Shown here piece after piece: positions 27,001 through 33,000 of a DNA stretch of 34,942 nucleotides (position 1 is the stretch's first letter; each line of letters begins with the position of its first letter). Made by a program: the position numbers. Where the stretch lies: positions 1 to 34,942 of the IMG/VR virus record IMGVR_UViG_2870083564_000004. One strand, 5' to 3'. The DNA comes from a virus. Its lineage: Duplodnaviria > Heunggongvirae > Uroviricota > Caudoviricetes.

Positions 27001-30000
27001 TCCGATTCCCCAACCTGCTTGGTACGAAGCTTGGATTCGGCAAGCGGGAGAAGTGGGGCATGCGGCCGTTGCAGCCGCGTGGGACGCGGTGAATGATGGG
27101 GCGGCGTACCTATCTACCGAAACGCACGCTTGGTTGCAGCAGCACGCGCCGTGGGCGCTGACCGCTGGCAGTTGGGTCGCGGATAAGGCGACAGCTACAT
27201 GGCGATGGGTGGATGAGAAAGGCCACGAAATCTACCGCTATACGACGGCGCAACTGAAGGCGGGATGGGACGCGATTGTCCGTTCGACGGACATGACGTG
27301 GGAAATGCTCAAACAAATAGATTGGGCGCAGATTGGCACGTCGATCATCAAGGGGTTGGCTGTCGTCGCCGCTGTTGTTGCGGGCGTAGTTATCATTATC
27401 GTGCTTTCGGAAGCGTTGCTGGCGATACTGCTTGCGCTCGCCGCGATTGTTGCAGCCGCCACGGCGGAAACGCTTGCCGTGCTTGCGCTCGCGCTAGGCG
27501 TGACAGCAGCCGCATCGTGATCGCACGGAAAATTACTGTCGAATCTCAATCAGAACATTCAACATGAGCAATGAATCTGTGGTGCTGACGCCGTTCGCAG
27601 CCTATGCACGCTACGCCGAGGAGTTGAGCGTGCGTTTGGCGGACAACAGCTTTGCGGTCAAGCCGGGGGTCATCGGGACGGTGTATTTCGCTGGCGGCTC
27701 GAAACCGGAGGGACGGCGCGGCTTGCTCGCTTGCTTCGACAAGTTTGACGAAATGTTCGGCAAACACCTCATCACCGGGAAAGATGAGGACCTAGCGAAG
27801 TTCAGTAAAAAAACTGCGAAGGGTGTTGAGAAAATCCGGAAGGCGATCAGCGATAGCGCAGACTTCGTCCAAGTCAGTGTCATGCGATCGAGCGCGCCGA
27901 CTTCCGCTGTCGCGCCTGACTATCAAATCGTTACGTTGACAGGCAGTGCAAACCCATTCGACTACGAAGCCCCGTCCGGCTACAAGGTTCCGAAAGGGGA
28001 GGAAATGGAACTGTCGTTTTTGAAGTTCAGCGTGCCGATGGAGTTAGTCACGAAACCGGAGGGGCAAGCGCAATACGAGTATTTCCTACATTACGTCTGT
28101 GAACAACTCGATGTGCGTGGTGGTTACGGTGGCTTGTCGGCAGTGACCGCGTACGACTACCACAAATGGCAGGCGCAGGAGTGGGCCATTGCCGAGCGAT
28201 TCAGTGGAATTGAGGTTGATGCCTGCGCTCACTTTGGTCGGGACGAGTACGATCCCGTCTCATATGAAGGCGAAGAAGGCGCCTTGACAGAAATATATAA
28301 CTTTCTGAAGCCGGGAAAAAAGGTTCATCGGTGGGGTTTCATCAAAGGCGTTAATTGGTATACGTTGCTCAGCGACGTTTTCGTTGAACGGCTCGGCGGT
28401 GAGGATGCGTTGCGTGCGGCCCTTGACCGCGACGACATTCAAATCGAGCGCATCAATCATTGTGTTCTCGTCCGAGCCGGACCATTTCCGCGCTTGGGAG
28501 CACCCGAAGAGGGGTTGCCGGAGCCGTACGTGTTCGTCAACAGCGTGTTACGCACGCTGCGCAACCCGAAGCCGGATGGTTTGCATCTGTACGATCCGCA
28601 ACTAGAAAATGCCGACAACAAGAACGCTCGAACATGGCAAGCGCGGTTCGATTTGCCCGGTGCTCCGCCGATTCCTGAGCCGCCGACGATCGTTCCGCCG
28701 CCTGTGAGTCGCGAACCGGCCCGCCAGAGTGTGCGTGGCGGTAACCCGTGCCCCGAAGCTGGTTGGTGGCACACGCCAGCAAAGGCGGGAAGTCGCCGCT
28801 ACTTCGAAGCTGGCGAAATCATGCCGGTGATCGAGGGCAGTTCGTGGGGCACAACAAACTGGCACTGGTCGCCGAACGACAAGCAGGGCGGGTAAGGCGA
28901 CAATGACGAGATACCTGATTCTCGACGGTGACCACACGACAGTGGCGGGAACGGTTCAAGCCAAGGCTACGCCGTTCGCGCTCGACGGCAGGCACATCGC
29001 GCACGAGAACGACGACGTGTTTTGCCCGGTGTGCAAGACCATCGGCAAGATTCAATGCGTCGGCCCGAGATTGCCAATGACGGGGCCGGACGGTCGCCGC
29101 GTAGCACTGAGTGATGATTTGTGCGTTTGCAAGTGTCCGGTGCCGCCATTGCTCGTCGCGTCGCAGCATGTCATGTCGGTTGATGTGTGATTGTTGTCAA
29201 GCGACCGGAGAGTTGTCCCGCTCGTTCAGTTCGACCTGAGTGTATTTGGGAAACAGTGCTGTGCTGAAATTTTCGCTAACTGAGAAAAGAGGCGGCATTG
29301 CTTCTAGAAATTCCCCGAATATTGTTGATGTGGTGCACGGGTGAAGTGATAATCGCCACATCAATTCAGTTATCGAAGAAAAATATTGCTGAGCGATGCC
29401 GCCGATTTTCAGGTAACCGTGGCTGACGATGCGTTTTGAGTTCGCTCCTGAATGGCGATATTGTATTTTTGCTCGATAATACACCTTATGGCATATTGGA
29501 TTTCTGAAGAGATTTTCTTTTTAGCATCTAAATTTGGCTGTTCGTTGTGAGTCCATTTTGAGCACTCGAAAATTAACTCCGAGTTTTCTTGCGTTGACCT
29601 ACTTCCGCCACTGAATGAGAAGCTGACTCGGCATTCTCCGGAATTCGCGTCTACACTGAATGGAAATGTGACATCCATTCTCTGAATATGATAATGTTTG
29701 TAGTATTTTTCATCATTAATCAGAAATATATCATTCAATCTATCGCCATCCACGTTGAGCTTTCTTACTGTCTGCTTCATCCACGATATTTCCGGATCGT
29801 TTGGAAGTGCGGGGGCGTTTGGATCGAGACAAATTTCGATATCGTTAACGCGTCCAGTCGACAAGATATTGTTATAACCAGAGGTTAATCGCTTAAAGTA
29901 GCGGACTCGCTCCTCGTTACTTAGGGACCCAAATGTGATTGACATGGGTTCATCTGTGGAAACTAGTTTTTCATCGTGCAAAACTTTGGCAATACGATTG

Positions 30001-33000
30001 GTGATTCGCTTGTTTACTAGCTCCGTTTCTTTTGACGAGTGCGTGGATGTAAATTCAAGCTTTAAGTTGTTTCCTTGCTTTTCAACAACAACATGCCCGT
30101 CAAAGTTGAGTTCTCGCTGAATCCAATCCTTGCTATAGTCTTGTCGACGTATTTGATACGGTATTGATATTTTATTGGGGCCGTAGACAACAAGAGATGG
30201 ATTTTTTGAAAAATCGATTCCAGATGCGCTGCCTAATGCATCAAAGGAGGCATCGAAAAGGTTTTTCTTTAGCGGGCCGATCCAATCTTTGTCGTCTGAG
30301 ACAAGATTTATTCCAGCAACCTTAATTTTGGGTTGAGATTCTCGATTTACGCTGCCCTCGATCAATCGAGTGAAATCGTCCGGGGTTAGGAGCGTTGCTG
30401 AAAGAAGTGGGACAGTAATCGATTTGTCCGCGTTTCCGACAAATACCCCCTTCTCCTTGAGGGCAGAATAAACCTCGCCGTAACTTAAATGATCACTTCC
30501 AAGCAGGACTCGCAGGTCGGAGCCGGTAACAATGGTTGACTTGAGGTCAATTGCATGAGCGCTGGTCATGGTCAATTATCCGACAAAAGGGTCAAAATGG
30601 AGCGATTATATGAAAATGGCTCGATTGTCTCTGGCCTTTCGGAAAAGGCCAATCTTGCCCGGTCAGCCTCCGCGACATCAGTTGCCGCATTGTAATCTGG
30701 CATTCCAATCTTTATCGTTGTTATGAGACTGGAGCAAAACTTCAAGCCATATGCCATCAACTTCTTGTACGCGTCAGCGCTAAATGGCTGGTTGGCGTAA
30801 ATAATCATCTCCGCCTTGTCACCTTCCCGAACCACCACTGGCAAGATATCTGATGCGATGAGTTCCAACGGTAGCGATGATCCCGTTCGAGGTTCGTCGA
30901 CTGTGACGGCTGTTCCGATGGAAGGGTAAAAAAAACTCCACGGCTTTGCGCGTCGCTCAAGATCGTCGGTGACCTTAATAATAAAGCTCGCACGGCCACT
31001 ATCGATCAAATATACTGGAACGTCCGATTCCTGCTCCAATCTAATTTTCGAAAGTATAGGTTTAATATCCCTTTCAATGTCGTCGGTGTCATTGTGAACC
31101 CAAACGAGTAGGCCGGAATGGAATATCGATTTGCGAGACTTAAAGTCACTCGTTGCTTGCGAAATTTCTTCGCTGTATCTGGCGCACTCAATAACCTCAT
31201 GAAGTTCGGCAATATGCTCCTTGAATTCTCGTCGCAACGTTGAGTCGGTTAGAGAGTATGAGCCAATCTTGTTTTTCACCGAAACATGGACAACATCGGT
31301 TCGTTCGTCATGAAATGGATTGTTATATAAAAATATTCGATCTTCCCCGTGTGAGGTGCGTTGGTTCCCTTTATCATTGACATGCGCCGGGGTGTTGCAT
31401 TTGATCGGTATGTTTTTTAGTCCACTTCCCCAACCGATACGATCCAGCAATCCTTTCGCAATTTTCTCACCAATCTCACCCGATGTTTTTGATTTCTCTC
31501 CTGACATTACGCCCCCGCAATATTGATGTCAATGATGGCTTTGTAGCCATTTTTCGTTTTGCTCACAACGCACTTCTCTAGATGAGCATGAGGATTTTCA
31601 ATGGTTATCCCGACGCCATGTGCTAGCGGGTACCGGCGAAGCGTATTTCTTGCTTGCTTCATGAGCAAAGCAGATTCAACTGGGCTTTTTTGTAGAGAAT
31701 GGAATCCTGATTGTTCTTCTAATTGATTTGTTAGGCGCTCAATTTCTTCTGAGTCCAGGTATTGTCGAGACGTGTCCTCAATGTCTTTGTAGAGGAGTGT
31801 TTCGTTTTTCGAGAAAACGTCTACTAAATCACGGCGCAAAGCCACGCCAGCGTCGACATCGATTCTCGAGCAAACTTGCTTAACAAATTCTGCGGCTACT
31901 TTGGCCGTAGATTTCTCTGTTTGCCTCGGTCTAGCCTTTAAAAATGAGTCAACCCAATATTTGGCTTGCTGTCCGCCAGATTCTTTAGCATACAAATGGA
32001 AATCGCTGTCGATAATAAGGGCGCCTTTTTGGATGTTGCTAACCGGAATTCCGCTTAACTCAATTAGATTTAAGGCGTCCCCTGATTTTTCGACGTCCAG
32101 AAACGGCTCTCTTTGTTCGATTTTGTAAACCCCTATTGCCAATCTGGATTCTCCGTCCACCCGAATGTCATGAAATAGAATTTCGATGAACTCTCCGCCA
32201 GTTATGCTGGGATGCGAGGAGGCTGAGTATAAGTGCTTTGCGATATTTTGACTGAGTCGAAGAAAATTATCGGGATTTTCAAAAATTCGTGAGGAAAATT
32301 GTCTCACTGCGTTGAGGGCGATGTCCGACTCGTGGTAAAAATCAAACTCATCTGCTCCCTTTGCGAGTGGGGCTAGGTAATGCTTGAGTAAAGTTCCATG
32401 TAACTCTGCTGTCCCATGAACTTCTTGCGATGACAGTTCGCAACCTTCTTCTCTCAAGCGATTTCCTACACGATGAACTACGCAGTGCACAATGCGTGCC
32501 GAGCTAATGTCAAGCATCTGGTTCCCCTTGTTGTTCGTACCTGCCGAGTCGCTTCCCGAAGCGTATTCGTAAATGTAGCGCAATATCAATGGTGAGCGCC
32601 ATCAGAGGTGAACAAAACAAGAGCGGCTCGCTGCAGACTCGGTTAGATGCAACAGTGCCCCTTACAAGCCAAGGCCCCCGGACCTTGGCGTCGCAAATTG
32701 CTCCGGCTCCTTGCCGAGCGGAAAGGCGACTACATAAAGTACATTGATGGGCATCGGCTTGCTGTTTTCGTCCGTCCCCAGCTTCACCTGCATCTTCCGT
32801 TCTGCATAGCGTAGCGAGACGCCGAGTGCCTTGAGCGCGTCGATGTGAGACTGCAACTCGTCGTACACATCGAATTTTTGGCTTTCGCTGAAAGCATCGG
32901 CGCAATCCCGGAAGTCTCGTAAATAGTCCACCAACATGGCAAAAGTCTCATCTGCTTCGCGGCTCAACTCGAAAGCCGGTTCAGATAAGTCCGCGTGGCA

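Follow-up and report, generated by a model that had tools for sequence, protein, structure and literature searches.

GAPS4 is an anti-phage defense system of two genes whose products form a 2:2 complex and degrade genomic DNA after DNA damage (PMC13748975). Its HGxD-SxK motif is essential, its trigger is unknown, the purified complex did not cleave DNA in vitro, and its cost to the cell is autoimmunity and antibiotic hypersensitivity (PMC13748975). Here, we describe a GAPS4 locus in a stretch of 34,942 nucleotides (nt) from the Caudoviricetes virus record IMGVR_UViG_2870083564_000004 (the window, to the whole of which all coordinates refer), in which gapS4a and gapS4b follow a gene for an NA37/YejK-family nucleoid-associated protein (NA37). 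The locus shares gene order, tight spacing, the HGxD-SxK motif, and a setting in horizontally acquired DNA with the systems of Vibrio parahaemolyticus MAVP-R and Escherichia coli RiKo 2299/09 (PMC13748975; bioRxiv 10.1101/2023.03.28.534373). However, those tested systems have two genes and belong to another branch, whereas the branch described here has the extra gene, coupled upstream, throughout. The RiKo GapS4a is 26% identical to that of the window, and no NA37 gene lies near it.

YejK-like proteins have been described as defense sensors elsewhere. According to the PANGU preprint (bioRxiv 10.64898/2026.04.06.716658), they sit on long DNA and are freed when phage T4 degrades the chromosome; the freed YejK-like Pag1A then binds the acidic DNA-mimic domain of the effector and activates it, while the effector alone is not toxic. 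PANGU defense is abortive and keyed to genome damage. In PANGU types I and II, a YejK-like gene and its effector gene form one operon with intergenic gaps of less than 40 bp, a trait also present in the NA37 operon. The type I and II systems tested there, however, are two-gene systems with an alarmone synthetase (toxSAS) or membrane effector and none with a nuclease effector, whereas the window operon has three genes, with GapS4a and GapS4b as partners, and lies outside that two-gene definition. The preprint surveys ten operon types; in Clusters 3 and 4, the nucleoid-associated protein is accompanied by "two conserved hypothetical proteins" on its downstream or upstream side. The wording is ambiguous and fits both of the NA37-GAPS4 gene orders reported below, and GAPS4 is not named in the text. 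The three-gene architecture may therefore be listed there, unnamed, as Cluster3; that Cluster3 is this very operon falls just short of being probable, judging by the descriptions. A further likeness is DS-1 (DefensePredictor; PMC13092281), a validated defense unit in which an NA37/YejK-domain protein is followed by a partner. It differs in having two genes: its NA37 protein is 391 amino acids long and extended at the N terminus, and the 404-amino-acid partner is not annotated as GAPS4.

The initial annotation had considered the arrangement not described. This holds for the GAPS4 literature that we searched, whose texts contain no mention of NA37, YejK, or nucleoid, but not for YejK-like defense sensors as such, given PANGU and DS-1. 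Judged from sequence, the locus represents a genuine and conserved variant, with three genes, of a defense system already known, and this variant is not stated in the GAPS4 literature searched.

A GAPS4 operon with a third gene

The three genes form a tight, low-GC (guanine-cytosine) operon on the minus strand, in the order NA37, gapS4a, gapS4b:

31507..32517, minus strand, NA37/YejK-family nucleoid-associated protein gene (336 amino acids; PF04245, 64.8 bits)
30572..31507, minus strand, gapS4a, PD-(D/E)xK nuclease subunit (311 amino acids; NF047933, 302.6 bits)
29409..30569, minus strand, gapS4b, predicted ring-forming subunit (386 amino acids; NF047934, 374.8 bits)
31505..31509, minus strand, NA37/gapS4a stop-start overlap TAATG (read directly from the sequence)
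29163..32724, no strand given, cassette extent common to four related Burkholderia loci (blastn, 89.7% DNA identity)

The NA37 stop and the gapS4a start have one base in common (TAATG), and 2 nt separate the gapS4a stop at 30572 from the gapS4b ATG at 30569; the coordinates and junctions given in the initial annotation are exact. An alternative in-frame TTG start of gapS4b at 30575 would overlap gapS4a by 4 nt. A purine-rich ribosome site precedes the NA37 ATG, and promoter and terminator scans of the locus returned matches at chance level only. The GC content is 0.449, 0.457, and 0.430 for NA37, gapS4a, and gapS4b, respectively (0.43 to 0.48 at third codon positions), compared to 0.55 to 0.60 in the adjoining genes. 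At 0.445, the cassette is lower in GC than any other 3.1-kb stretch of the whole 98.9-kb record (GC content, 0.606; next lowest stretch, 0.519). The low GC content noted earlier (32 to 45%) is thus real, although 32% is not reached at the level of genes.

Both GapS4 proteins passed the hidden Markov model check. GapS4a matches NF047933 over its full length, above the curated NCBIfam cutoff of 270 bits, and GapS4b exceeds the NF047934 cutoff of 300 bits. The HGxD-SxK motif of GapS4a is intact (H53-G54-E55-D56 and S76-V77-K78), and its columns are close to invariant among 141 GapS4a homologues. These matches identify gapS4a and gapS4b as the known GAPS4 anti-phage DNA-cutting system, as had been proposed. 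In PADLOC 2023, there is no model for NA37, GapS4a, or GapS4b.

The model of GapS4b (predicted local distance difference test [pLDDT] score, 78) resembles RdgC over residues 77 to 374. Its top structural match is RdgC 2OWL (Z score, 9.5; root mean square deviation, 5.2; 227 residues aligned), a score close to those of others, with shorter matches within 1 Z. An RdgC-like model agrees with the ring predicted for GapS4b in the GAPS4 paper, which does not name RdgC.

The NA37 protein scores well above the PF04245 gathering cutoff (24.6 bits) and matched no NCBIfam model. It is predicted to adopt a DNA-clamp fold of the YejK type: in two structure searches, the best match of its model (pLDDT, 89.5) was E. 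coli YejK (NdpA; PDB 9BE2), with a Foldseek E value of 9.8e-9 and a Z score of 16.4, and both dimerization arms are present in the model. A distant second match, a Kiwa KwaA-KwaB entry, has a Z score of 6.6, within the range of chance. Despite the shared predicted fold, identity to YejK is only 12 to 14%, and one genome can hold both proteins; Yersinia and Atopomonas genomes carry a canonical YejK at a site separate from this NA37 lineage. Because of this low identity and the canonical YejK elsewhere in genomes with this lineage, NA37 is a member of a GAPS4-linked lineage and not the housekeeping YejK.

Several basic residues are conserved in the lineage (K186 in 100%, K287 in 66%, and R290 in 79%), as is K184 (77%), which is Q in the window protein; placed by motif register only, these four positions lie near the basic pore residues R173/R176/K177 and R276/R280/K284 of YejK. 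R22 is invariant in NA37 proteins beside GAPS4 and altered in 3/4 of the groups without it, a weak contrast (P of about 0.08 by a rough hand estimate, with the columns picked from the same data). The ratios of nonsynonymous to synonymous substitution rates relative to the copy of the B. vietnamiensis type are 0.044 for NA37, 0.033 for gapS4a, and 0.031 for gapS4b, showing that NA37 is under purifying selection, as are its two partners.

NA37 is linked to one branch of GAPS4

Among loci found by GAPS4 query, NA37 lies directly upstream of gapS4a in 19/19 loci inside one branch of GapS4a, down to ∼28% identity, and is absent from 17/17 GAPS4 loci outside the branch, the tested RiKo system included. 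The outside set comprises 11 loci from a random sample, 2 plasmid loci, 2 E. coli systems (one being RiKo), 1 fused locus, and 1 very divergent locus; in four pseudomonad loci, the absence applies to the 1.5 kb of flank that was covered and not to sequence farther downstream. At 50 to 76% GapS4a identity, the NA37 gene was immediately upstream in 8/8 genome loci, and it was upstream in all seven of the more distant representatives, to ∼28% identity, the last of which is ended by its contig and was scored on its C-terminal part only. A sample of ∼1,980 randomly chosen proteobacterial genomes yielded 15 new full-length GAPS4 loci; the 4 with NA37 were all inside the branch, and the 11 without were all outside it. 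The linkage put forward in the initial annotation is therefore not specific to one strain.

In a maximum-likelihood tree, 24 NA37-first clusters (70% identity) split from the two-gene systems with support of 97/99, with the exception of the long-branch two-gene row L158, which could not be placed. Branch membership correctly predicted NA37 in 6/6 new loci, which the active-site motif did not. The variant HG[E/N/D]D had at first seemed to mark NA37-linked GapS4a (42/44 versus 0/9), but it failed out of sample, since locus L162 has HGED and no NA37. In the two-gene GapS4a proteins of L165 and L167, HEFD replaces HGxD. One genome (G1248) holds both forms of GAPS4, two-gene and three-gene (L163 and L168).

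Across 36 related loci, the gap between NA37 and gapS4a ranges from −8 to +13 nt. Tree distances over these loci are correlated between NA37 and GapS4a (r = 0.82), NA37 and GapS4b (r = 0.88), and GapS4a and GapS4b (r = 0.90), and 15/21 well-supported splits are common to the trees. NA37 and GAPS4 are a unit that has been inherited whole over a long time, which does not imply contact between the proteins. The earlier proposal that the three genes arrived as one unit is supported.

NA37 without GAPS4 and a second pairing

The NA37 lineage is not confined to GAPS4 operons. In metagenomes, gapS4a was the next gene in 35 of the 52 scorable loci of this lineage and was missing in 17; clustered at 70% identity, these are 18 clusters with gapS4a and 5 without. 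In the tree, those solo copies that were tested fall within the GAPS4-linked copies, and several are intact; they are therefore most simply explained as losses of GAPS4, and no gapS4a or gapS4b remnants were seen beside the solo genes. In this sample, loss is one-sided, with NA37 lost in 0/12 clusters and GAPS4 in 5/23. Frameshifts in two solo copies (L065 and L068) were dropped as signs of decay; they are probably sequencing errors, since the locus is intact in L055 and neighboring genes are fragmented too. Eight intact solo copies nested in the GAPS4-linked lineage (L046, L048, L049, L051, L052, L061, L062, and L066), presumably kept after the loss of GAPS4, stand in differing gene contexts, mostly in marine or aquatic metagenomes.

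A sister NA37 lineage is common in prophages, mostly without GAPS4; a related NA37 lineage (L108 to L125) is frequent in prophage-like viral contigs, amid replication and methylase genes and without GAPS4. In L083, L093, and L096, the gene immediately after gapS4b or a fused GAPS4 gene is an NA37 of the sister lineage. The GAPS4 proteins of these loci have their closest relatives among two-gene or fused types and fall outside the NA37-first branch. As both the NA37 lineage and the GAPS4 type differ, the pairing arose at least twice, and its occurrence in the sister lineage is, by the placement of these proteins, a second, independent event. Its frequency is 3/18 such metagenome loci, though GAPS4 occurs in roughly 1% of genomes. 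Two further arrangements were noted:

L096:1348-3996, fused GapS4a-GapS4b of 883 amino acids with ∼200 extra N-terminal residues, NA37 directly after
L098:347-4832, coupled operon of a weak NA37-like gene, a 494-amino-acid open reading frame (ORF), a second NA37 gene, and a 263-amino-acid ORF

Neither the 494- nor the 263-amino-acid ORF of the L098 operon had family matches.

Possible roles of NA37

The reading that we tentatively favor, at a little below an even chance, is that of a three-gene GAPS4 variant in which NA37 is a required, PANGU-like sensor that couples the destruction of the chromosome to the activation of GAPS4. The initial annotation put NA37 forward as a DNA-sensing or regulatory third subunit, which stays a proposal. 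Two points lead us to the sensor: PANGU offers an analogy, and NA37 was never missing from the branch. The purifying selection on NA37, its codivergence with GAPS4, the second pairing, and the basic residues conserved near the YejK pore positions (by motif register) are also in its favor. A YejK-like DNA clamp would have been the third gene of this branch from an early stage of its evolution. An NA37 dimer would sit on the intact chromosome and be set free when a phage degrades that chromosome; the freed protein would turn on the GAPS4 complex, either by binding it or by loading it onto DNA, and the cell would kill itself in an abortive infection. In that case, the nuclease of this branch would not work without NA37, in contrast to the two-gene GAPS4 systems for which tests exist. 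A wider version, in which the whole branch depends on a YejK-type clamp as its trigger and the pairing evolved again, with the genes in reverse order and an NA37 of another lineage, is possible but more doubtful.

Several observations weigh against a sensor role. The two-gene systems of MAVP-R and RiKo are protective without a linked NA37 (PMC13748975; RiKo neighborhood checked here), and a dedicated sensor is therefore unnecessary across the GAPS4 family as a whole. The in-branch loci, being grouped by the 97/99 branch, are one gain and not many independent observations, and linkage and codivergence are expected of any cotransferred genes. NA37 also stays intact without GAPS4 in the 5 solo clusters out of 23. 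Finally, judged by sequence charge, neither GapS4a nor GapS4b has a conspicuous acidic DNA-mimic domain like the target of Pag1A: their mean net charges (−3 and −4, respectively) are no different from those in two-gene systems, and the only mild acid excess in windows along the sequence is at GapS4b residues 91 to 120 (−3.8 versus −1.1 in two-gene GAPS4).

The main rival reading is that NA37 restrains GAPS4 by coating DNA or filling the GapS4b ring, which would raise the firing threshold and reduce autoimmunity and hypersensitivity; degradation of the chromosome would again free NA37, with derepression rather than activation as the result. GAPS4 has a known cost to be limited, DNA-binding homing endonucleases dampen it, as proposed, by masking breaks (bioRxiv 10.1101/2025.09.07.674715), and the one-sided loss described above is the pattern of an orphan antitoxin. 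However, this asymmetry is not significant (P of about 0.1 by hand calculation) and fits an activator too, and in PANGU, the YejK-like protein activates an effector that is harmless alone; we regard restraint as rather unlikely. It is also unlikely, slightly more so, that NA37 is a fellow traveler whose task is a weak defense of its own, control of operon transcription, or some general function in the nucleoid and which cotransfer holds together with GAPS4, while GapS4a and GapS4b work alone. The GAPS4 family does function as two genes, intact solo copies of the lineage persist in several genomes, and 47% of YejK-like genes stand in operons with varied partners in the PANGU survey. Yet NA37 is not lost across GapS4a divergence down to 28 to 30% identity, the stop-start coupling is kept throughout, and there is a second, independent pairing with GAPS4, all of which is hard to square with hitchhiking.

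Gyrase and topoisomerase IV are binding partners of E. coli YejK (PMC11229321), and gyrase poisons trigger GAPS4 (PMC13748975). Both findings would suit a role in which GAPS4 senses damage itself and NA37 widens the phage range, as a second input or as a recruiter to the nucleoid or topoisomerases. The presence of both GAPS4 forms in G1248, as if they differed in range, points the same way. But an optional booster should sometimes be lost, and no loss was seen; moreover, at 12 to 14% identity, the partners of NA37 need not match those of YejK. Such widening seems improbable to us, and the sensor reading remains the one that we prefer.

The three-gene branch joins the question of what triggers GAPS4 with YejK-like sensing of genome degradation. 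If NA37 is an activator, the sensing seen in PANGU reaches nucleases as well; if NA37 is a restraint, the branch reveals a way in which cells hold down the cost of a suicide nuclease that damage sets off. In both cases, a subtype should be added to the rules for detecting GAPS4, one that makes up about a quarter of loci in our small sample (4/15). Should the branch indeed depend on NA37, it would provide a nuclease effector for PANGU-type sensing in which two proteins, a clamp of the YejK type and a ring like RdgC, encircle DNA. It would also open a way to activate GAPS4 in vitro, which has failed so far.

Genomic context of the cassette

The nearest named relatives of GapS4a (97% identity) and GapS4b (96%) are both from Burkholderia vietnamiensis, and the host is therefore probably a close relative of this species. 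Four other assemblies, in which GapS4b carries a B. vietnamiensis annotation, share the cassette with identical −1 and +2 junctions; the flanking genes differ. Upstream of the cassette lies a variable stretch that is different between strains, and beyond position ∼40,000, the record is filled by what looks, from the ORF list, like a lambdoid prophage. Because related loci carry other genes upstream, the cassette probably does not belong to the prophage and is cargo of an adjacent island. No match to gapS4a was found in phage genomes or viral contigs. Other features of the window are as follows:

23351-29190, plus strand, orphan type VI secretion cluster vgrG - VRR-NUC (TseV-like) effector - TsiV immunity - PAAR, converging on the GAPS4 cassette
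32662-33357, minus strand, XRE-family helix-turn-helix protein, long in its C-terminal part and 145 nt from NA37 on the upstream side
33469-34338, plus strand, 289-amino-acid ORF with no family assigned; its C terminus has a short, below-cutoff match to a histone H1-like model of Burkholderia
34403-34942, running past the window end, plus strand, FRG-domain protein with PADLOC PDC-S15 matches (E value, 6.7e-9)
3548-15943, plus strand, very large ORF of ∼4,100 amino acids with LysM and Ig-like domains

The cassette stands tail to tail with the type VI secretion cluster, as in the four related loci, where the effector-immunity pairs are divergent. As GAPS4 is reported to sensitize cells to DNase effectors of the VRR-NUC kind, its place beside such an effector is curious. 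The XRE gene was rejected as a fourth member of the unit, having a higher GC content and being absent from the related Burkholderia loci; in L024 and L025, other helix-turn-helix genes lie immediately ahead of NA37 (9-nt gap). The FRG-domain protein is a further candidate defense gene of the variable region. Ahead of the ∼4,100-amino-acid ORF lies one of 1,187 amino acids without a Pfam match. In another three-gene locus (L014:5083-6939), methyltransferase, QueC, and PTPS-family genes directly follow the operon.

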